Part shown: one piece after another, positions 2,790 through 45,089 of the stretch
Layout: every line of letters starts with the position of its first letter
Numbering within the stretch: position 1 is the first letter of the stretch
DNA from: Candidatus Dojkabacteria bacterium
GTDB taxonomy: Bacteria > Patescibacteriota > Dojkabacteria > B142 > WJKM01
DNA length: 64,000 bases
NCBI GenBank assembly: GCA_014729085.1
Contig: WJKM01000019.1
Coordinates: forward strand, 836 to 64,835
Direction of reading: 5' to 3'
Made by a program: the position numbers and the translations under genes
Notes under the pieces: generated by a model
What the model was told of the DNA's origin: nothing
Databases searched by the model: none
The model's input: only the letters and a program-made list of their open reading frames with translations

Positions 2790-4208
2790 TTAAGTTAAGA
2801 TTTTATTTGCCGAAAGAACGTTTATTAGAACATCTTTTAATACCTGTTTATTCTCAATCCCGCCCTCATCTTCAAGTTTTTGCAACAAAACTCTTGAAGG
2901 TTCCATTTCTGCAAGATTTTCTTTAAAAAAGGCTTCAATTTCTGCAGTATCTCCGCTTCCGGTAGCAACTAAACCTTCAATTGCTTTCCTAATTTCTATA
3001 TCCCTCATCTCCCATCCGCTTACTTCCCTTATTTCCCAATTATCCCCAACTTTTTCGCTTACTGTAAATTTCCCGTCTAAACCCAATTTTTGAGCTTGTG
3101 ATGAATTATTTTCCACAGCTTCAAAATCCAGCAAAGGCTCTTCATTCTCTAAAGCCCAAAGCAACCTACCAATAGATAAAGTCATTGCAGCTGCATTAGC
3201 CTCAGGTGACTGCTGCGTTGAAATTGGTCTGAATTCTACTAACAATCTTTCGATATCCAAATCTTCATCTGTAATGAATTTAAGTTTTGAGGCAAGCCAA
3301 TTCGTCCCTGTTGCTATTGCTAAGGCTTCGAACTCATTAGAGGGTTCAAGTATCAATGGATGTTTTGCCATATGTTCGAAAACATCCTCGACATCATCGA
3401 AAAAACCATCTGGCAAAAATACCCTATGCCCTGTTTCCGTCAAATGAGTCATATCCCACAATCTATTCCTCGGTTCATTCCATCCAGTATCAACTCCTTC
3501 AGCAAATCTCGAATTACCCGTAATAGCTACTAAAAAAGGTGACATTTGTATGGACCAGTTCACCAAATCAACAGCTTCTTCCGGACTTGTAGCTGACATA
3601 TTAAACTGAATTGAATTGCAAGCGCTTACAACAGTAGCATCAGGCTCTTCCTCTAATCCCAGTTCTTCCATTAAAACAAAGGAATCTTCTACCCTATTCT
3701 CTATATGATGATTTGGAACTTGCTCATATTTTGGCTTGCTTGTTCTAACAATATTATTGAGCTCAAGTGTCGGATGCAGCCCCATCTTTAATACACTTGC
3801 ACCCTTATCATTTGCAGCATCTACCAAACAATCATCCAACCACGTAAACAACTCAACCATTTTATCCGGCGAAAATCCCTGTGAAAATATTTCCTCCTGA
3901 TTAGCCTCAATTTGAAAGGCTCCCAATTCCGGTTGAAAGGAAAATAAACCACCTCTCTCATTAGACAATAAATTTGCATCATCTATAATCTGGTCTCTCA
4001 AACTTTCGTCAATAGGACTTAAATCTGAGTGCACTAAACTAAACTCAGCCTCTATACCAATAGTTCTAGGATTATGTCCCTTGAAAGGAGATTGTAAAGT
4101 CAACTTTTCAAAAGCATTTCCCAAATAATTCCCTGCACGCCTTTCTTGGGGAGTACTAGTTAAAATATTTTGCGCTCTAATATTTTGTATTTGCTCATTT
4201 ATATTCAT
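2790..4208 (-). CDS. Carboxylate-amine ligase, glutamate-cysteine ligase family 2 (GCS2/YbdK-like)
   Basis: TIGIEAEFSLV motif and length fit GCS2. Start placed at MNINEQ (4208), because the track's upstream extension to 4319 runs through a terminator hairpin. Confidence 0.65.
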   Translation of the reverse strand: MNINEQIQNIRAQNILTSTPQERRAGNYLGNAFEKLTLQSPFKGHNPRTIGIEAEFSLVHSDLSPIDESLRDQIIDDANLLSNERGGLFSFQPELGAFQIEANQEEIFSQGFSPDKMVELFTWLDDCLVDAANDKGASVLKMGLHPTLELNNIVRTSKPKYEQVPNHHIENRVEDSFVLMEELGLEEEPDATVVSACNSIQFNMSATSPEEAVDLVNWSIQMSPFLVAITGNSRFAEGVDTGWNEPRNRLWDMTHLTETGHRVFLPDGFFDDVEDVFEHMAKHPLILEPSNEFEALAIATGTNWLASKLKFITDEDLDIERLLVEFRPISTQQSPEANAAAMTLSIGRLLWALENEEPLLDFEAVENNSSQAQKLGLDGKFTVSEKVGDNWEIREVSGWEMRDIEIRKAIEGLVATGSGDTAEIEAFFKENLAEMEPSRVLLQKLEDEGGIENKQVLKDVLINVLSANKILT

Positions 4209-4267
4209 TTTATTTAATTCAAAAATAATATTTAGTAAGTTAGAATTTATTACATATTTGAAAGTGA

Positions 4268-4356
4268 TAAAAAACCCACCTTTCGGTGGGTTAAAAATCA
4301 ATACAGATATATACCTCACCGAAAGGAAAGTTCTGAATAATAGTAATAATAATTTT
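4268..4356 (-). promoter_or_regulatory. Leader/terminator unit A: A-tract, hairpin cccacc-tttc-ggtggg, then a segment (cctcaccgaaagg) complementary to the hairpin loop and 3' stem
   Basis: Seen directly. Hairpin 4277-4292; the 4313-4325 segment can pair with cctttcggtg at 4281-4290. Confidence 0.5.
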
Positions 4357-4398
4357 GTGTGATAAATTTAAAAACCATATTTAATCAACTTAATATAA

Positions 4399-4490
4399 AA
4401 AGAAAAAACCACTCTTGGCGAGTGGTATATTCAAAAACTACAATATCCAATCACTCACCCAAGGGTAAGTTTTGAATAATAATAGTTTTT
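4399..4490 (-). promoter_or_regulatory. Leader/terminator unit B: a paralogous copy of unit A
   Basis: A-tract plus hairpin ccactc-ttggc-gagtgg (4410-4426), then tcactcacccaagggtaagttttgaataataatag. This aligns with unit A's tcaccgaaaggaaagttctgaataatagtaataat. Confidence 0.5.
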
Positions 4491-12270: not shown

Positions 12271-13425
12271 ATGAAAATTAGAAAAATATTTCCTTTAGTA
12301 TTCATAATTTCTTTTATAGTTATAGGAGCAACTTTTTATTATAAAAACATTTCAGCAGCTACAAAAGAATACAAAATAGGAGATCAAGGCATACGTCTAA
12401 CCCTAGGATACTGCGACTTTGATTTGATGTGGTGTTATGGTGAAGAAGGTGATCCTCAACTCGAAGTAGAAAGTGGAGTTTCTCAATGGATTACAATGTA
12501 TACGCAGTACAACGATGCCGATGCTTGTATCTCGACTACATTAGAATATCCAAGTAATGATATGATTCTTGTGAATTCGGCTTCCAGACCATATAAAGTA
12601 TCCTCTGAAATCAAGGATGGTTCTATGATTCAGCATTCAATACTTACTCAAGCAGGAGGGGACAGATTTACTCCTACAAGTCAACAAACTCTTATGGATT
12701 GGACTTTTTATATAAATCCATCTCAGCCAAAAACAATAACTCTTTATCAGAATGTAGAAATATATGATTCAACATGCACAACAAAGCAGGAAACTTTGTC
12801 TATTCCTCTCGAGATTATTGTAACTACAGGATCTGGTGAACAACAACCAAGCGATAAATTAACGGACATAAATGGTGATCAATTTGAAACTTATATTAGA
12901 AGTCTTGCAAATGAATTAATTGTATCTGGATATTCCGATAATACATATAGATCGGGAACTCATGTTACGAGAAATCAAATGGCTAAATTTGTAACCAATG
13001 CATTTAATTTTACTGTCAATCGTGGTGGTACTGCATTTCCTGACGTTCCAATCAATGAGGATGCTTTCAATCCGATAGAACTTGCCTGGTATGTACAAAC
13101 TTTAAAAAATCTTGAAATCATCAGCGGATATTCAGATGGATATTACAAACCTGAAAATCTTGTAACTAGAGGTCAGGTTACAAAATATATAGTTAATTCC
13201 TTAATTGAAAAAGGCGTATCTGTTGATTTATCACTAACACCTAACTATCCTGATGTACCAGCTGACCATACTTTTGCAAAAGAGATAGCGTATCTCTCAA
13301 GTGTTACAGTAGATGGAGAAAAAGTTATTAGAGGTTACTCTAATGGAAATTATGGTCCAGATGATCCACTAACAAGAGGACAAATGGCAAAAATAATTGA
13401 CAACTCAAGAAAAATCTTAGATTAA
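12271..13425 (+). CDS. Cell-surface protein with N-terminal signal/anchor and three C-terminal SLH (S-layer homology) domains
   Basis: Hydrophobic N-terminus. Repeats GYSDNTYRSGTHVTRNQMAKFV, GYSDGYYKPENLVTRGQVTKYI and GYSNGNYGPDDPLTRGQMAKII match the SLH consensus. Confidence 0.7.
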   Translation: MKIRKIFPLVFIISFIVIGATFYYKNISAATKEYKIGDQGIRLTLGYCDFDLMWCYGEEGDPQLEVESGVSQWITMYTQYNDADACISTTLEYPSNDMILVNSASRPYKVSSEIKDGSMIQHSILTQAGGDRFTPTSQQTLMDWTFYINPSQPKTITLYQNVEIYDSTCTTKQETLSIPLEIIVTTGSGEQQPSDKLTDINGDQFETYIRSLANELIVSGYSDNTYRSGTHVTRNQMAKFVTNAFNFTVNRGGTAFPDVPINEDAFNPIELAWYVQTLKNLEIISGYSDGYYKPENLVTRGQVTKYIVNSLIEKGVSVDLSLTPNYPDVPADHTFAKEIAYLSSVTVDGEKVIRGYSNGNYGPDDPLTRGQMAKIIDNSRKILD

Positions 13426-16062: not shown

Positions 16063-17745
16063 ATGAAAAAAATCAACGTTCAACTTATTATTGCATTCAT
16101 CTTCTTAGTATTTTTTGTTCCCTTAAATCAAGTCTCAGCAGAAGCTTCCGGAGAAATAATCGAAGATGGTACTGTGGATTACGCCGATATCGATCCAGAA
16201 AGTGATATCGTAACTGAATGTATGGGAGTATTTGTAGATATGAACCAAGCAGACATTTTTTGTCCCTATGCTGAATACCTATATCATCAGAAAGTAATTT
16301 CTGGAAATCAACAAAGGGAATATATGGCCGAAAATTCTTTGACTAGAGGAGCACTTGCAAAATATGTTGTAAATGCTTTTGATATTCCAATTAAACTTGA
16401 AACTGAACCATTCCCAGATGTTTCCGAAGATCACACCTTTTATAACTATATTATGGCTCTAAAACATGCAGGAATAATTAATGGTTATTCCGATGGTAAT
16501 TATAAACCGGATAGATATGTAACTCGAGGAGAACTTTCAAAATTTATAGTTAATGTAACAGAATCTGAAAAACCGGATTTATTTGCCAACATTTGTGTTT
16601 GCGAAAAAATAACCTTAGAGGATGGCGAGTCGATTTATGCATGTCCTAAATGTGCCAAAGACGTAGAGGTTTTCCCAGATGTAACTTTTGAAAATGTCTT
16701 CTATACATATATTATTAAATTGTATAGTGCAACTAAAGACGATAATAATTTTTTAAAAATTATTGGGGGTTATTCCGATGGTACTTTTCGACCAGAAGCA
16801 AATGTAACAAGAGGACAAGTTGCAAAAATCGTAGCAAATACAATGAAATTTGGTTCTTTTAGAAATATCAAATGTGCACGCTATTTTTGCCAGGATAGAT
16901 TTGATGAAAACTTGCTGGAACCTGATTTACCTGAAAATATGGAGGTAATAAAGGATTTTTCGAATATTTCTAATGCACAGATCTCAGATATTGAAATAGT
17001 AAATTCAGATGTCTACATATCAGATTATGGAAATGGAGAAATATATAAATTAAATCAATATGGAGATAATTCAGAAACTATAGCTCAAAACCTTACTTCA
17101 CCTTTATCAATATCTGTCTCAGATCTAAATGAATTACTATTTATTCAAGATAATTCAGATCAGGTTGTAGGAATAGTTAAGCTAGATTCAAATAATGAAC
17201 TTAGATTTATTGATGGTGTTACACAATCCAATCTAGGTGACGCCTTCGAACTAGACGCTTATACAGTTGGTACCAATGATTATCGTGTCTATGCAATCAC
17301 TACCTCAAACTTAGTAAAACAGATGAATCAAAGTGGAGATTCTTATGGATTACCAAGTTTACGTATGGACCGAAACGATCTCAACCAACTTCAGGATATT
17401 GAAATATACGATGGAAGAATATATCTCGTTATTCAAGATCAAGGATTTGTTACATATTATGGAAGCTCACAAGAAACAAATACAATCTCGGGCCTTCCAG
17501 AAGAAGGTACTTTAGATAATGTTTCTAGTATTTCCATTAAAAATGGATATATTTATCTCGGTGATTCAATCAATGAGAAAATATATGAATTAAAAATGAG
17601 TGATTTTAGTAATTCAGTTATTGATTTTACTAATCAATATGATTTATCAAATATTTCAGGAGAGATTCATGATCTGGTTCCTGATAATACAAATACATAT
17701 CTGTATGTGATTGTAGATAATAAATTAGTAAAAATTGGATTATAA
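16063..17745 (+). CDS. Secreted surface protein: signal peptide, three SLH domains, C-terminal repeat (beta-propeller-like) region
   Basis: Signal peptide MKKINVQLIIAFIFLVFFVPLNQVSA. SLH-like repeats NSLTRGALAKYVVNAF, GYSDGNYKPDRYVTRGELSKFIVN and GYSDGTFRPEANVTRGQVAKIVAN. C-terminal repeated YI/IY-D motifs. Confidence 0.7.
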   Translation: MKKINVQLIIAFIFLVFFVPLNQVSAEASGEIIEDGTVDYADIDPESDIVTECMGVFVDMNQADIFCPYAEYLYHQKVISGNQQREYMAENSLTRGALAKYVVNAFDIPIKLETEPFPDVSEDHTFYNYIMALKHAGIINGYSDGNYKPDRYVTRGELSKFIVNVTESEKPDLFANICVCEKITLEDGESIYACPKCAKDVEVFPDVTFENVFYTYIIKLYSATKDDNNFLKIIGGYSDGTFRPEANVTRGQVAKIVANTMKFGSFRNIKCARYFCQDRFDENLLEPDLPENMEVIKDFSNISNAQISDIEIVNSDVYISDYGNGEIYKLNQYGDNSETIAQNLTSPLSISVSDLNELLFIQDNSDQVVGIVKLDSNNELRFIDGVTQSNLGDAFELDAYTVGTNDYRVYAITTSNLVKQMNQSGDSYGLPSLRMDRNDLNQLQDIEIYDGRIYLVIQDQGFVTYYGSSQETNTISGLPEEGTLDNVSSISIKNGYIYLGDSINEKIYELKMSDFSNSVIDFTNQYDLSNISGEIHDLVPDNTNTYLYVIVDNKLVKIGL

Positions 17746-17901: not shown

Positions 17902-19146
17902 ATGGAAGATACAATCCTTAATATTGAATCCACTATAAACCCTACACTCTTCGGAATGTGGGATCATGATGGTGATGGAATTGGATTTTTTACTGAAATC
18001 CGATATGGCACAAATCCCAATTTAGCAGATACTGATGGTGATAATTTGGGCGATTATATAGAGATATACGATCCAATGTTTGATCCTACAAATAAAGACT
18101 CTGATGGCGATAATATATATGACTATACTGAATACCATTTACAACAGAGGCTCAATCCTAAGCTCAGAAATCGCATAGTTTTTAGCACAACACCAGATGA
18201 AGGATCTGAGGAGATAATGACTCCATTTGTTGGGGATCTAGACGACGAGATAATTACTACAATAGCAAACTCCTTAAATAATTTATCTGATCAACTTCCG
18301 CTTACTTGTGAGGATTTAATTGATCAATCTAATCCTCAACTAATTGTGAATCTATTCAACCATTACGAAGGACGTGGAGGCTTTGTCGAATTTCCAGATA
18401 AAGCTCCAAATATAATTAATATTGGTTTAAATACTAATCTATCTCTTAGGAATATAATAGCTCATGAATCATCTCATGCTTTATGTGATATCTCTACTGA
18501 TAATAGAGATACACCGACTTATGATCCACTAACTATTCCGCTCGAATATCGCCACTCAAGTAGAAACTTTGAAGTACATGGAATAAGAGAAGGACAACTT
18601 TTATTATCAGTTTATAACGAAAAAAAGGCATCCGAAATAAGAGAATGGCTTTCTTTCCAATATGGTGTAGAAGAATCTGCTCAAATTGGTGATAATGAAA
18701 TATTTCAAGTTCACACCCTATATTTCGATAATACTTTAATGGAAGTAAATGCAGTTTTTAATACTTATAGAGACTCAGAAGGCAAAATTGATCTTAGTGC
18801 ATTAGAAAGTGATTACGAAAGAAAAGCTTTAACTTTTTATGAAGAAATAAGCTCATATATAGAAAACATTTCTGGAAAAAATATGGACTTAAATGAATTC
18901 GGAAGGCTCATAAATGAATCACACAGTTATCCAGATCATAATGCTTCAGGAGATGTACTAACATATTTTTACGAAGCTTTGATCGAATATGCAGGGATTG
19001 AAGATGATCCAAATGCTAGACTTGATCTAAATAACAGAATTATGAATAGCTTGGGTAAATACATATTCATTGGACCAAGTAATATAATAACTAGACCTAA
19101 TGAAAATATTAATATAGAAAAATATTTCGAGTTACAGGATTATTAA
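17902..19146 (+). CDS. Hypothetical protein with Asp-rich calcium-binding (thrombospondin-type-3-like) repeats and an HExxH motif
   Basis: DHDGDGIGFF, DTDGDNLGDY and DSDGDNIYDY repeats; IAHESSHALCD. No obvious signal peptide at the annotated start. Confidence 0.5.
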   Translation: MEDTILNIESTINPTLFGMWDHDGDGIGFFTEIRYGTNPNLADTDGDNLGDYIEIYDPMFDPTNKDSDGDNIYDYTEYHLQQRLNPKLRNRIVFSTTPDEGSEEIMTPFVGDLDDEIITTIANSLNNLSDQLPLTCEDLIDQSNPQLIVNLFNHYEGRGGFVEFPDKAPNIINIGLNTNLSLRNIIAHESSHALCDISTDNRDTPTYDPLTIPLEYRHSSRNFEVHGIREGQLLLSVYNEKKASEIREWLSFQYGVEESAQIGDNEIFQVHTLYFDNTLMEVNAVFNTYRDSEGKIDLSALESDYERKALTFYEEISSYIENISGKNMDLNEFGRLINESHSYPDHNASGDVLTYFYEALIEYAGIEDDPNARLDLNNRIMNSLGKYIFIGPSNIITRPNENINIEKYFELQDY

Positions 19147-19147
19147 T

Positions 19148-20974
19148 CTATCTAACTTTAGTACCAGATTCAATTTCTTTATCTGGATTAAGTAAAACTA
19201 CTTTTCCAGAGTCATCTGCTGCTAAAATCATTCCTTGGCTTTCTAAACCTCTAATAACTTTAGGCTCTAAATTAAACAAAACCGGAATTTGTTTTCCCAC
19301 CAGTTCTTCCGGAGAATAAAACTCTGCCAGTCCGGCCATAAGCTGTCTCTCTTCCTTACCTAGATCAACAATTAATTTTAGTAATTTATCTGCAGACTCT
19401 ACTTCTTCAGCCTTCTTAATTGTTCCAACACGGATATCCAATTTTGCAAAATCCTCATAACCAATTACAGCTTTTTCTTCTTTGTTTATATCTATATTAG
19501 CAGCTTTACTCAAACCAACAGCTTTTCTAATTTTTGCAAAAAGTTTGTCTGCAATTTTATTTGCTTTTTCTGCTCCCTTGATTCTCATGTCCTTTACATA
19601 ATCAATATTGTTTAATAATTCTTTCTTCTTTTTTCTAACATCTTTAAAATAATCCATGAAGGTTTCATATAATTTTTCCTTAATCTCCACATCTCCAATA
19701 TTTCCTGTTTTATATTTATCTTTCATCTCTTTTAATTCATCATTATTGTATTCCAGTAACTCAAGATAACTAAATGCAACATTTTTCTTTGGATCCCCTG
19801 GATCTGTAGGGTGTACTCTGGCAGGGTCGGTTGTAATTTTCATAATCTGTTGTCTTATCTTCTCCTCTTCTCCAAAAATAGATATGTCATTACCCAACGA
19901 CTTACTCATCTTTCTTTCTCCATCAATTCCCTTTACTCTAGCTACGTTTTTTCTAACGTATAATTTTGGAAGTTTAAGTGTTTTTCCATACCTTTTATTA
20001 AAATTACGTGCCATATCTCTGCATATCTCAACATGCTGAGTCTGGTCCTCGCCAACGGGTATTAAATCTGGTTCCAAAATTAAAATGTCAGCTGCCATTA
20101 AAACTGGATAAGAGAAAAGCCCCATACTAATATTGTCCTGAGCCACCTCTTTTTGTAATTTATCTTTATATGCATGCATTCTCTTAAGTTCCGCTATGGA
20201 TGTAACGTTATTTAAGATTGTCTGCAAATATGGAATTGCAGGTATATCGGATTGAACATAAAATGTAGTTTTTTCGGGGTCTATTCCAAATGCAATCCAT
20301 TCCATAAAAACATTCATAGTATTTTTCTCAACTTCCTTAGGATTAAATACAGTATTTAGAGCATGTATATTTGCAACAAAATAAAAACATTCTCCTCTAT
20401 CTTGAAATTCAACCTGTGGTTTTACAGCTCCGAAATAATTTCCAAGATGAAGACCTTTTGGAGAACTTGGAGTAATACCTGAAAGTACTCTTTTCTGTCC
20501 TCTAATGTATTGATAACTACAATCTACAACTTTCGGATTTGTCAATTTTTTAAGATCTTCGGGCCTCATCTTAATGTCCCATTCTGGATCCCCAAAACCT
20601 GAATAAACATATTCCTTCTCTAAAAGCGCCTTATCCATCACGTATTCTAAGTCTTCATGAAAAATGCTTACTGTACCTTTGTCAAAACCAAACTTTTTCT
20701 TTATTACTTCAGTATCTGCTGGCTGAATCTGTTTTAAATTTAATATTTTCTTCAACTTATTAATATCCACTTTTGTATCATCTCTCCTATAAACCCCAAT
20801 ATATCCTTTATCAGTTTTGAAAATCAAGGTAGATAATCCCTGATCATAGGTAAGGCCCATCTCAAAAATATACTCATCCACATCCGTCATTGGAGCATGC
20901 TTAATAAATTCGAAATCGTTAATGCCTAACTCTCTTAATAACTTCTCCTGTTCCTGAATATTTTTCGGCTTCAT
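19148..20974 (-). CDS. trpS: Tryptophanyl-tRNA synthetase with N-terminal YbaK/ProX-like deacylase domain and C-terminal EMAP/Trbp111-type tRNA-binding domain
   Basis: Class I core SGITPSSPKGLHLGNYFGA (TrpRS-type HxGN) and KMSKS. Residues ~40-150 align with the YbaK pattern KTLlv...D..klak.lg....A....V...tGy..G.vSp. The C-terminal GYEDFAKLDIRVGTIKKAEEV...GLESQGMILAA is an EMAP/MetRS-C-type OB fold. Confidence 0.8.
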   Translation of the reverse strand: MKPKNIQEQEKLLRELGINDFEFIKHAPMTDVDEYIFEMGLTYDQGLSTLIFKTDKGYIGVYRRDDTKVDINKLKKILNLKQIQPADTEVIKKKFGFDKGTVSIFHEDLEYVMDKALLEKEYVYSGFGDPEWDIKMRPEDLKKLTNPKVVDCSYQYIRGQKRVLSGITPSSPKGLHLGNYFGAVKPQVEFQDRGECFYFVANIHALNTVFNPKEVEKNTMNVFMEWIAFGIDPEKTTFYVQSDIPAIPYLQTILNNVTSIAELKRMHAYKDKLQKEVAQDNISMGLFSYPVLMAADILILEPDLIPVGEDQTQHVEICRDMARNFNKRYGKTLKLPKLYVRKNVARVKGIDGERKMSKSLGNDISIFGEEEKIRQQIMKITTDPARVHPTDPGDPKKNVAFSYLELLEYNNDELKEMKDKYKTGNIGDVEIKEKLYETFMDYFKDVRKKKKELLNNIDYVKDMRIKGAEKANKIADKLFAKIRKAVGLSKAANIDINKEEKAVIGYEDFAKLDIRVGTIKKAEEVESADKLLKLIVDLGKEERQLMAGLAEFYSPEELVGKQIPVLFNLEPKVIRGLESQGMILAADDSGKVVLLNPDKEIESGTKVR

Positions 20975-21025: not shown

Positions 21026-21053
21026 AAAAAACAAAAAACCTCCTGTACGGAGG
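21026..21053 (-). terminator. Rho-independent terminator (A-tract + cctccgtacaggagg hairpin)
   Basis: 6-bp stem; in minus-strand sense it is followed by a U-tract. Lies downstream of the frameshifted Cys-rich gene. Confidence 0.5.
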
Positions 21054-21180
21054 AATACTAGAAAGACATGCTGACATAATCCGTACAATCAAATACGTTT
21101 CTGCCACCACATATTTTTTAATAAGAATATTTTATTTTTCATAACTGAATCTATTATAGCAGAACTGTTGCTGTATGTCC

Positions 21181-21935
21181 CTAAGGTTCAGAAAATAAAG
21201 GAAGAAGCGGATCGGTAAAACGCGTTTGAACTCCTGCATTGTACCTATTTGGGAACCTTAATTCGCTTCCTTTTTTAGGTATACGACCAGGCTTAGGTTG
21301 GCATAAAGGTTGAAATATACATCTAGGGCAATTTTCTTGTATCAACTTTTTTGAACTCTTATCTGCAACAGCACTTACTTCCCCATATGAGTCCCCTCGT
21401 AATAAAGGTTGCTCCAAAAGCACCACATTTGCTTCTGGCCATGGAAACCCCAGTGGCATTATAGTTGAGGGAAATCCTATCCTTACATTCGGAACAGAAC
21501 TAATTCTACATCCTCCTACATCATTTGTTAAGAAACCTTCCCCTCTGTTTGTTACATAGCTTACTGAACTATCTAGATGATGTTCTAATAAGGCTTCACC
21601 CAGGATACTTTTAATAATTACAGGCGTCTTTGGGTCTTGTCTATATCCTAAAAGCCTCAAAATTTCTGTATATTCTGCTTTACTATATTCTTTATATTTC
21701 TCCATTTCAAAAAAATTTATCCTATAAGTTTTGTACTTGGTGTATCGCTCCCCCCACCAAGCTTCCCTGCATCTGTAGCTCCACAGGAAGGCATTTGTCC
21801 TCCATATTCTGGCCATATTTGTGCTGCTCTTTGCCATACTTTTGGATCAAACCTATCCATAGGAACAGGATCATCATTGCATATACAACCCGATAAAGGT
21901 TGTCCACACCCCCAACATCTTGGTTCTAGTTCCAT
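21181..21935 (-). pseudogene. Cys-rich hypothetical protein gene disrupted by a frameshift at a C6/G6 homopolymer (~21750-21755); atypical GC-richer composition
   Basis: Two overlapping minus-strand ORFs in different frames (21717-21935 and 21181-21837) join smoothly across cttggtggggggagcg. N-terminal CWGCGQPLSGCIC and C-terminal CPRCIFQPLC cysteine clusters. Confidence 0.5.
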
Positions 21936-22053
21936 TCTATTTTTATAAATTATTTAATTATCCTTCTATTACAACTTTATCCTCAAACTCTTTCACAATC
22001 AAATTATTAATTTAACTTAATATGTAACCCAGTCTTCTCCGTCCCTCAAATCT

Positions 22054-22075
22054 AAAAAACCTCCATTTCTGGAGG
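22054..22075 (-). terminator. Rho-independent terminator (A6 + cctcca-tttc-tggagg)
   Basis: 6-bp stem with an A-tract on the plus strand, downstream of the WecA/MraY-like gene. Confidence 0.5.
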
Positions 22076-43412: not shown

Positions 43413-45089
43413 CTAGCTCCTATCAATAAATTCATGTTTGCTTGCTGGATCAGGCTTTTCATTCTTGGAGAATTTCAACATTGACACAAATTTATCTGCT
43501 TTAGAAGCTTTTTCAGCCATTTGATAAGCTAAAATTCTATAATTTATATGTCCGCCCGGTCTTACCCTAAGTCTTGTTATATAACTTAATTCCTTGACTG
43601 ATCCATGCAAATACAGTCGACAAATATTTGCAAATGGAAGTAATTGTACTAACAGACTCTTTGGAAACCATTGCTCAGACTCAACTTTCTTAATAAAAAC
43701 TTCTAATTTCTTATAATAACCTTTTAAATCGTTTTCGAATTCATCTACAATTGAATTTTTGATATTATCGTTATCTGTTAAATAAGCAGGAAGTGTATAT
43801 CCATCAAACATGTAATTTTCCAGATCTTTGACGGCGGAAAGCATTGGGACAAATCTACCCCAGGCTCTGTGTCTATTTAAATCTCTTGCCTCGGCAACAG
43901 AAGAAATAAGTTCAAAAGTATAATGATTTACCCTAAATTGATTGCCCATCTGTTTATGATGACAGAAATCATTGCAAATAATATCGGATAACTTTTCTCG
44001 TTCTTCTTGCTTTAAATTTTTCAACCACTTGATAAGCCAGTCAGTATCAACAAGAGGAAAAAGAGACATAATATTCTGCATTACAGCCTTCAAGCCGGCT
44101 GTTAAATCAAGGTCAAACAAGTTTACTTTGATTGGTTTGAATTTGTTCTCAGTATAAAAAAGAGCCTCTTCTTCGAAATTAATTTTTTTTAAATAATTTC
44201 CTAAGGCACTCAAATTGTTTGCTGTAGTTTCATCGTAATTTGTGTGCCTGATGAGATCTGGTGCTTCAGGAGTGTATCCAATCTTTTGAGCACATTCTTG
44301 ATCAGGAGCAAATAAGATCTCTAGCTGTTCGCCTAAATAATTCAAGTACAAATCTTTACAGGACTTAAGCATTGAAATGATGCGTGCCCATTCTCTTCCG
44401 GATGTTATATATGCAAGCGAGGTTTTTATGTTCATACCAGAAAGTAAAAAATATCTTGCAGAATCAAAAACTCTTGCCTGAAGAGCACTTCTTTGTTTTT
44501 TATCGCTCGTGTCAATTTCATATACTTTTTCATATTCTTTACTAAGTATTTCCTTATATTTCTCGTAATGCTCAAGACTATAACTTTGCAGTTCCTGTAA
44601 TTGCTTATCAATCTGCTTGTATGCATCCTTGGAAACCTTATCCTTTTTAAAATAATGTTTATAATCTTTAAGTGACATAAAGGCGCTGGAACTGAAATCC
44701 TGATATCTAGTTGACCTTTCTTGTCCACCCCCAACAGAAGTTTCATAAAAAAACTTAAATGCGTAAATTTGAGGAATATTTTCTATATAAGCAAAAAGCA
44801 TTGCCATATCAGCTACAGAGGCATGACCATAATTTTTAAATATATTGGCTAATTTTTTATTTGCATTCTTTCCTGAATCTCTGATTTCTTTAAACAATTC
44901 TCTAGCCGACAAATCAGAACGGGAGTATCTCGCACCTGCAAAAGCCATTATTGAGGCAGTTTGTTTTCCGTGGTTAGGTAATGCAGTTCTTACAGTAAAA
45001 TTTGTGCGCTTGTCATGCAAACTTACAATTACCAAGTCTGTCTCATCTGGATCTGAAATGGAAAACTCAAAATTTTCATATCTCTGCAT
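43413..45089 (-). CDS. ThyX-family (flavin-dependent thymidylate synthase-like) protein, long tandem-domain form
   Basis: C-terminal half: HYTFELISSVAEARDLNRHRAWGRF resembles the ThyX HxxFxF...RHR region. N-terminal half: GHASVADMAMLFAYIENIP...GQERSTRY resembles a degenerate second ThyX repeat without RHR. Confidence 0.45.
   Translation of the reverse strand: MQRYENFEFSISDPDETDLVIVSLHDKRTNFTVRTALPNHGKQTASIMAFAGARYSRSDLSARELFKEIRDSGKNANKKLANIFKNYGHASVADMAMLFAYIENIPQIYAFKFFYETSVGGGQERSTRYQDFSSSAFMSLKDYKHYFKKDKVSKDAYKQIDKQLQELQSYSLEHYEKYKEILSKEYEKVYEIDTSDKKQRSALQARVFDSARYFLLSGMNIKTSLAYITSGREWARIISMLKSCKDLYLNYLGEQLEILFAPDQECAQKIGYTPEAPDLIRHTNYDETTANNLSALGNYLKKINFEEEALFYTENKFKPIKVNLFDLDLTAGLKAVMQNIMSLFPLVDTDWLIKWLKNLKQEEREKLSDIICNDFCHHKQMGNQFRVNHYTFELISSVAEARDLNRHRAWGRFVPMLSAVKDLENYMFDGYTLPAYLTDNDNIKNSIVDEFENDLKGYYKKLEVFIKKVESEQWFPKSLLVQLLPFANICRLYLHGSVKELSYITRLRVRPGGHINYRILAYQMAEKASKADKFVSMLKFSKNEKPDPASKHEFIDRS

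Follow-up and report, generated by a model that had tools for sequence, protein, structure and literature searches.

A lysine-less INS/YbaK-fold domain and a Trbp111-type tRNA-binding domain fused to tryptophanyl-tRNA synthetase in a Dojkabacteria genome

Tryptophanyl- and tyrosyl-tRNA synthetases (TrpRS and TyrRS) are the textbook examples of aminoacyl-tRNA synthetases that have no editing domain. The subject of this report is a trpS gene from the Dojkabacteria (WS6), a candidate phylum, whose product carries an N-terminal domain of the INS/YbaK fold and a C-terminal tRNA-binding domain on either side of the TrpRS core. The gene lies in a window of 64,000 nucleotides, the whole stretch of DNA that was analysed (contig WJKM01000019.1, assembly GCA_014729085.1). 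The closest described relatives of the N-terminal domain are the trans-editing factors of the INS/YbaK superfamily, namely ProXp-x/ProX TTHA1699 (PDB 2CX5/2Z0K), APE2540 (1WDV) and YbaK (2DXA/1DBX), which have the same fold and belong to the same Pfam family, PF04073. According to reviews, all of the characterised enzymes of this superfamily use a conserved Lys together with a GXXXP loop (PMC11286415). A 2024 review describes the members other than the INS domain of prolyl-tRNA synthetase (ProRS) as single-domain proteins and lists ProXp-7, -8 and -9 as uncharacterised (PMC11295145).

An INS domain attached in cis to a synthetase is found in bacterial ProRS and in the ProRS of protozoa (Plasmodium, Trypanosoma), where it is N-terminal. 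The appended protozoan domains retain both the Lys and GXXXP, and their deacylation of Ala-tRNAPro has been shown (PMC11286415). In those systems, however, the partner is a class II synthetase with a well-known Ala/Cys error, whereas here the partner is a class Ic TrpRS and the Lys is absent. A second comparison is with the cytosolic TrpRS of Plasmodium falciparum, which likewise bears an N-terminal appendage of an editing fold without an evident need for editing; this appendage was reported to be unique to alveolates and was concluded to serve tRNA binding rather than editing (PMC3240968, PMC3680381). It differs from the present case in having an AlaX fold, not an INS/YbaK fold, and in being joined to a eukaryotic-type TrpRS. 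An earlier reading of the Dojkabacteria sequence alone, the first-pass annotation, had called a deacylase module on a TrpRS unexpected; unusual it is, but given the Plasmodium protein it is not unprecedented. No paper was found in our literature searches on an INS/YbaK-type domain joined to the TrpRS or TyrRS of a bacterium, nor on a Lys-less branch of the superfamily, and searches on synthetase editing domains in bacteria of the candidate phyla radiation (CPR) and on the deacylase DTD in Patescibacteria returned nothing relevant.

In sequence and structure comparisons the N-terminal domain is unambiguously of the YbaK/ProX fold, yet it falls outside YbaK proper. The Pfam family tRNA_edit (PF04073), predicted by the first-pass annotation for aa 1-160, has a significant match over residues 27-144 (55.6 bits, gathering threshold 25.5; E 7.2e-15), and alignment of the domain to 34 canonical members of the superfamily with hhalign gives a probability of 100% (E 1.3e-44). 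Structures were modelled with AF2 as monomers, with a predicted local distance difference test (pLDDT) score of 90.4 for the full-length protein and 94.5 for the N-terminal domain alone. When the domain is compared with known structures by Foldseek, it matches ProX TTHA1699 (2cx5, 2z0k), APE2540 (1wdv) and the YbaK proteins of E. coli and H. influenzae (2dxa among them) with template-modelling (TM) scores of 0.77-0.87 and E ~1e-12, the score for both 2cx5 and 1wdv being 0.83 and the values for 2cx5, 1wdv and 2dxa lying within 0.81-0.87. The same search also retrieves SadB (9qzk) and the putative signal-transduction protein Maqu_0641 (3mem), which are multidomain proteins that are not described as editing factors. 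Besides being covalently fused to TrpRS, the domain differs from the trans-editors in falling far below the equivalog cutoffs for YbaK: YbaK_EbsC (TIGR00011) requires 153.25 bits and the domain reaches 31.6, and for PRK10670/NF007951 it reaches 19.5 of the required 243. Of the YbaK-like deacylase that had been annotated, the fold consequently stands, the YbaK identity and the catalytic Lys do not, and deacylase activity is at present a conjecture. Since only a very short linker lies between the domain and the opening strand of the Rossmann fold, the domain is predicted to sit next to the synthetic site, at a distance that is inferred from the model.

The feature that sets this domain apart lies in its signature residues. 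Among the 34 canonical members the only invariant columns are a K, a G and a P, and the K is the strictly conserved catalytic or positioning Lys of the superfamily, K46 in YbaK and K279 in ProRS. In the Dojkabacteria protein this position is occupied by Ser48: phmmer alignments to 2dxa, 1wdv and 2cx5 place their K-[TS]-L opposite the S-T-L of the query (in 'GLSTLIF'), and the identical mapping is obtained with MAFFT (59 fused homologues), hmmalign (205 sequences) and hhalign (the 34 canonical members). Conservation of the catalytic Lys, which the first-pass annotation had singled out for checking, fails not only in the query but throughout the fused homologues. In 70 of these the column contains S (48%), A (34%), P (8%) and also G or V, with K in 0 of the 70, as against 87 of 87 canonical relatives. 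The GXXXP loop is likewise degenerate; its Pro is Ile104 in the query and is present in 26 of the 70 fused Lys-less homologues, compared with 97% of the canonical members.

Other parts of the pocket are retained or newly acquired. The first Gly of the GXXXP loop (G100, 97% of the fused clade), D114 (100%) and the G-x-G formed by G126 (97%) and G128 (92%) are kept as in the trans-editors, while the Lys has given way to Ser or Ala, the Pro is mostly lost and a new R-R-x-D motif has appeared, comprising R63 (88%, with K in a further 10%), R64 (97%) and D66 (98%). Together with T49 (94%), these residues are conserved in the fused clade at least as well as in the canonical members, where position 63 is L, I or V. 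Of 118 sequences without the Lys, 99 have a basic residue at position 63, as does 1 of the 85 that carry it (Fisher p ~5e-37, with phylogeny ignored). In both AF2 models, DSSP assigns strands 46-54 and 57-64 to a hairpin with a two-residue turn; in this register residue 48 would pair with residue 63, with both side chains on the same face of the sheet, so that the cationic group would appear to have moved from the Lys position to R63. Because R63 is predicted to pair across the hairpin from S48 and because the clade's motif is nearly invariant, the site looks remodelled rather than decayed. K53 was considered as a substitute catalytic Lys and rejected; only 65% of the fused homologues have it, and canonical members have it just as often.

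The other two domains are more conventional. The core has, on the evidence of its sequence, all of the catalytic and Trp-recognition motifs of an active bacterial-type class Ic TrpRS. It matches Pfam tRNA-synt_1b (aa 161-443, E 3.5e-60, above the gathering threshold) and, with 295.9 bits against a cutoff of 176.75, the NCBIfam model trpS (TIGR00233), and bacterial TrpRS chains in the PDB align with aa 160-490 (2el7, E 2.5e-71). H176, N179, D310, K355, M356 and K358 are invariant among 80 homologues; the Asp of the GEDQ motif is the residue that reads the indole NH in the TrpRS of B. stearothermophilus.

At the C-terminus, the protein resembles Trbp111 and MetRS-C, and the comparison with known proteins assigns the tail to this dimeric subtype and not to the EMAP II type. 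Its last 103 residues match above curated cutoffs: Pfam tRNA_bind (PF01588), predicted earlier for aa 500-608, is found at aa 514-606 (E 1.1e-28; 99.6 bits against 27), and NCBIfam metG_C_term (TIGR00399) scores 131.7 bits against a cutoff of 116.65. Chains of Trbp111/MetRS-C in the PDB match aa 499-608 (1pyb, E 1.8e-31; 8vtz, E 1.4e-31), whereas in the same search EMAP II/AIMP1 chains reach only E ~1e-7 over aa 508-600. Moreover, the protein ends straight after the OB domain of about 100 residues, with no C-terminal pseudo-dimer extension of the EMAP II kind. Of the composite label given to the tail before, EMAP/Trbp111/MetRS-C-like, the Trbp111/MetRS-C part is thus upheld (E ~1e-31) and the EMAP part is not. 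The domain is beta-rich in the model (pLDDT ~90). As in MetRS, a flexible linker connects it to the C-terminal end of a class I enzyme; the difference is that the synthetase here is TrpRS. With all three domains above their Pfam thresholds, the three-domain organisation and the boundaries first proposed for this protein are borne out.

The open reading frame (ORF) runs unbroken through 608 codons, and its ATG is the earliest start available after the upstream stop. The product is 100% identical to MBD3363345.1 (P0001 in our set of homologues), which is already public but under a generic name, 'tryptophan--tRNA ligase [Candidatus Dojkabacteria bacterium]'. That the fusion might be an artefact, produced by a wrongly assigned start, by a frameshift or by the misassembly of trpS with a ybaK-like gene, has hardly any probability. 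Nothing was found in favour of it; no strong Shine-Dalgarno sequence is seen upstream of the ATG. A start downstream of the N-terminal domain, which would have undone the original annotation, would cut the fold short, because residues 1-28 belong to it: residues 4-15 form a helix and 22-25 a strand in the AF2 model, L13 is kept in at least 90% of homologues, and the whole segment aligns with the N-termini of homologues in MAFFT. In addition, the same junction is present on dozens of independent contigs, many of them from CPR metagenomes, drawn from NCBI, JGI, ENA and Logan. Chance, a frameshift and an assembly chimera are ruled out. The coordinates of the gene, its domains and its motifs are collected in Table 1.

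Table 1. Features of the trpS gene and of a second synthetase gene in the 64-kb window (positions are those of the whole stretch)
Feature	Position	Strand	Basis or remark
trpS gene, 608-aa three-domain tryptophan--tRNA ligase, complete	19148..20974	-	stop codon 19148-19150
N-terminal INS/YbaK-fold domain, aa 1-155, Lys-less clade	20510..20974	-	Pfam, AF2, Foldseek, hhalign
Ser48 codon, position of the superfamily's invariant catalytic Lys	20831..20833	-	four alignment methods
R63-R64-D65-D66, clade-specific charged motif	20777..20788	-	conservation in fused clade
G100-T-V-S-I104, degenerate counterpart of GXXXP loop	20663..20677	-	alignment
Bacterial-type TrpRS core, aa 160-488	19511..20497	-	TIGR00233, PDB 2el7
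HLGN, aa 176	20438-20449	-	motif search
GEDQ, aa 308	20042-20053	-	motif search
KMSKS, aa 355	19898-19912	-	motif search
Flexible linker, aa 489-505	19460..19510	-	pLDDT <50 at residues 493-501, full-length model
Trbp111/MetRS-C-type OB-fold tRNA-binding domain, aa 506-608	19151..19459	-	PF01588, TIGR00399, PDB
Isoleucyl-type class I synthetase (IleRS), 1,538 aa	50823-55439	+	tRNA-synt_1, Anticodon_1, DUF5915
IleRS inserts: Ser_hydrolase aa 259-393, NUDIX aa 462-589, His_Phos_1 aa 860-1013			Pfam

The N-terminal module is widely shared among relatives of this TrpRS. Among the 120 best homologues, on which the architecture survey is based, it is present in 63: N-domain plus TrpRS accounts for 46, the full three-domain arrangement for 13, and tandem N-domains on TrpRS for 4 (2 with tRNA_bind and 2 without). 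The remainder are TrpRS alone (42, about 335 aa) or TrpRS plus tRNA_bind (15). All of the named sources and GTDB loci are CPR/Patescibacteria, including Dojkabacteria, Woesebacteria, Microgenomates, Doudnabacteria and metagenome-assembled genomes (MAGs) labelled Saccharibacteria. When 1.84 billion representatives were searched exhaustively with a profile, 7,979 relatives were recovered at E <=1e-3, with 36 at E <=1e-30; the best-scoring ones are Lys-less, and canonical K-bearing proteins begin only at about E 1e-28 and downward. A profile scan of genome contigs with a tight sub-alignment found three loci, all in CPR MAGs, while the same kind of scan with the single N-domain as query found nothing. 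An alignment query to a word-indexed protein database gave a single, uninformative hit (P0121).

The geometry of the fusion varies. The Lys-less module is N-terminal to several TrpRS proteins, with core identities to the query down to 30%, C-terminal to one TrpRS (P0144) and N-terminal to a bacterial-type TyrRS (P0138). In one further protein (P0150) a B3_4 domain of the PheRS type precedes tRNA_edit and then TrpRS. Tandem Lys-less pairs stand N-terminal on TrpRS in P0014, P0028, P0032, P0049 and P0122; the two copies are of different subtypes, both Lys-less (for example 'AATLLMK..RRGD..GAASVY' and 'VSTLIFQ..RRDDHQ..GYVSPYN'), and their joint presence implies non-redundant specificities. There is also a free-standing Lys-less 'RRDD' member of 157 aa (P0128; positions 4001-4474 of locus L006, CP025011.1), in a complete genome of 1.45 Mb. 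Its gene lies among those for a glyoxalase, an HxlR and a DUF4383 protein, and none of the surrounding genes belongs to translation. In the sample examined, the fusion partners of the Lys-less clade are class Ic TrpRS and TyrRS only. K-bearing tRNA_edit domains occur on archaeal-type TyrRS, N- or C-terminally (P0188, P0178), and C-terminally on aspartyl-tRNA synthetase (AspRS; P0241). One protein (P0203) consists of three tRNA_edit domains.

In a rough neighbour-joining tree of the TrpRS cores the module is scattered, although one large clade bears it nearly throughout. The query's own clade is mostly TrpRS plus tRNA_bind and has the module only in two three-domain proteins, P0001 and P0002, whose cores are 71% identical and whose N-domains are 29% identical; the query N-domain is nearer (38-39%) to those of P0056, P0077 and P0066, which belong to distant TrpRS lineages. 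This pattern suggests domain shuffling or very fast evolution. The possibility that the closest relative without an N-domain has instead a split gene was considered and rejected: upstream of trpS in P0005 (locus L001) there is only a divergent peptidase gene and no tRNA_edit gene.

How might such a module be used? The reading that we favour, at a probability of roughly 0.45, is that a Lys-independent module acts in cis on tRNATrp, whose aminoacylated CCA end it would handle or hydrolyse. An active bacterial-type TrpRS would have acquired two extra tRNA-handling modules. The N-terminal domain would dock the aminoacylated CCA end, with R63, aided by R64 and D66, taking the place of the Lys as the anchor for the phosphate of A76 and for the aminoacyl ester, and would hydrolyse wrong products, which would amount to post-transfer proofreading. 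The C-terminal domain would dimerise as TrpRS itself does and would raise the affinity for tRNA. Mischarging with D-amino acids and with Phe or Tyr are errors known of class Ic synthetases, and the candidate substrates are accordingly of two kinds: D-Trp-tRNATrp, in a form of chiral proofreading, and Phe- or Tyr-tRNATrp formed when tryptophan is scarce. CPR bacteria are generally reported to have limited biosynthetic capacity, so that Trp scarcity is a realistic condition for them. Under Trp depletion, human TrpRS (WARS1) has been pinpointed as a possible source of W>F substitutions (PMC8942854), and the co-fusion with B3_4 in P0150 points to aromatic substrates. As to the D-amino acids, the substrates of DTD1 from E. 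coli are D-Tyr-, D-Trp- and D-Asp-tRNA (PMC1807948); from this we gather that D-Trp-tRNATrp may be made by TrpRS itself. The three DTD1 substrates match the synthetases that carry INS-like modules here, TyrRS, TrpRS and AspRS; the likeness may be one of function only, as the fold and mechanism of DTD are unrelated. A tblastn search with an approximate E. coli DTD sequence gave no match in the window, a 64-kb part of the genome, and so says nothing about the genome as a whole.

Besides the architecture and the fold, several observations speak for the favoured reading: the remodelled site is well conserved, loss of the Lys at position 48 appears tightly coupled to a basic residue at position 63, the fusions, as judged from the sequences, are recurrent, independent and of several geometries, and the tandem copies are of two subtypes. 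In its strongest form, a true cis-proofreading domain on CPR class Ic synthetases that has exchanged the Lys for an Arg on the neighbouring strand and clears D-Trp-tRNATrp (as a substitute for DTD) or Phe/Tyr-tRNATrp, the proposal is less likely than not. Should it hold, editing would be assigned to a TrpRS for the first time, and the superfamily would have gained a new way of catalysis. Several points weigh against this line of thought. Both features of the INS deacylases are missing, the Lys being absent and the GXXXP Pro being Ile104, and we know of no editing requirement established for bacterial TrpRS. The proposed exchange of R63 for Lys depends on the hairpin register that DSSP assigns to the models, and the association between a basic residue at 63 and the lack of Lys is a sequence count uncorrected for phylogeny. 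The closest TrpRS relatives (P0003-P0013, core identity 65-73%) do not have the module, and since there is no split gene at L001 either, the module is dispensable; it is often gained, lost or shuffled. Finally, the sole studied TrpRS with an appendage of an editing fold, that of Plasmodium, was judged to use it for tRNA binding (PMC3680381).

These same points bring forward a serious rival, somewhat less probable than the favoured reading, namely that the module is a pseudo-deacylase, a dead YbaK fold recruited for binding the tRNA acceptor end or for product retention, which together with the Trbp111-like tail would raise the affinity for tRNATrp or would shield Trp-tRNATrp until its hand-off. 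The loss of the Lys from every fused homologue and of the Pro from most of them is what such a history would leave behind, and the dispensability of the module in sister lineages, the Plasmodium precedent and the retrieval of SadB and Maqu_0641 by Foldseek fit as well; the separate gain of a dedicated tRNA-binding tail suggests selection for tRNA affinity. What a dead fold explains less easily is the very strong constraint on the R-R-x-D motif and the pocket glycines, the retention of two diverged subtypes in tandem, the co-occurrence with a second editing-fold domain, B3_4, and the free-standing member that has no synthetase attached. All of this is better accounted for by a site for a specific ligand or for catalysis than by RNA binding of a generic kind.

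The free-standing members lend themselves also to a different explanation, in which the module is a trans-editor of another tRNA (Ala- or Cys-tRNAPro, for example, or Ser/Thr-mischarged tRNAs, as with ProXp and YbaK) that has been attached to TrpRS because, in a reduced genome, the link secures co-expression or stability. The nearest structures are indeed those of trans-editing factors, and the characterised free-standing members of the family are often relaxed in tRNA specificity (PMC11295145). This explanation is nevertheless improbable: the restriction of the partners to TrpRS and TyrRS, in several independent arrangements, argues for a partner-specific role, the short rigid linker is predicted to put the domain at the TrpRS active site, and the domain lacks the Lys that every characterised ProXp and YbaK enzyme uses. 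The literal content of the first-pass annotation, a canonical Lys-dependent deacylase of the YbaK type, in the style of Cys/Ala-tRNAPro, fused to TrpRS, fares worse still. The tRNA_edit match and the YbaK fold would be expected of such an enzyme; its scores against the YbaK models and the Ile at the Pro position would not, and the absence of the Lys refutes it at the level of the sequence, so that it retains almost no credibility.

Whichever of the two leading explanations applies, a clade that is widespread, strongly constrained and Lys-less has been fused repeatedly, in several geometries, to TrpRS and TyrRS. Either D-amino acids or aromatic near-cognates pose a fidelity problem that episymbionts with reduced genomes solve in cis, or tRNA handling is a new use to which an editing fold has been put. 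With either outcome, the rules on the residues that this family of deacylases cannot do without would be refined. The Lys-less clade may correspond to ProXp-7, -8 or -9.

A second synthetase in the window is also elaborated. The first-pass annotation had suggested that this lineage decorates its synthetases, and Pfam confirms that the IleRS carries three inserts of hydrolase type (Table 1), which adds to the evidence that the synthetases of Dojkabacteria are unusually ornate. The window contains no recognised tRNA genes.

Around trpS itself, the gene on its 3' side (17902-19146, + strand) has no Pfam match, is convergent with trpS and leaves a single base between its own end and the stop codon of trpS; as the 3' ends of the two genes abut, there is no room for a terminator between them. 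On the other side, about 1 kb (21040-22060, - strand) separates trpS from a glycosyltransferase gene. This segment has a higher GC content (0.37-0.41), contains only odd-looking ORFs and is flanked by terminator-like hairpins at 22078-22057 and 21053-21039. A noncoding RNA was considered here and rejected (no Rfam match; fold z-score +0.9); the segment probably encodes two small hypothetical proteins, one from a Cys-rich ORF of 72 aa and the other of about 174 aa, starting 'MEKYKEYSK'. Proteins with SLH repeats, in a CPR genome, are encoded at 12271-13425 (+) and 16063-17745 (+), and in the Dojkabacteria-like locus L001 an SLH-bearing S8 peptidase adjoins trpS. Farther away, at 43413-45089 (-), an ORF of 558 aa contains two stretches of Thy1 (ThyX, flavin-dependent thymidylate synthase) and is about twice the usual length of ThyX.

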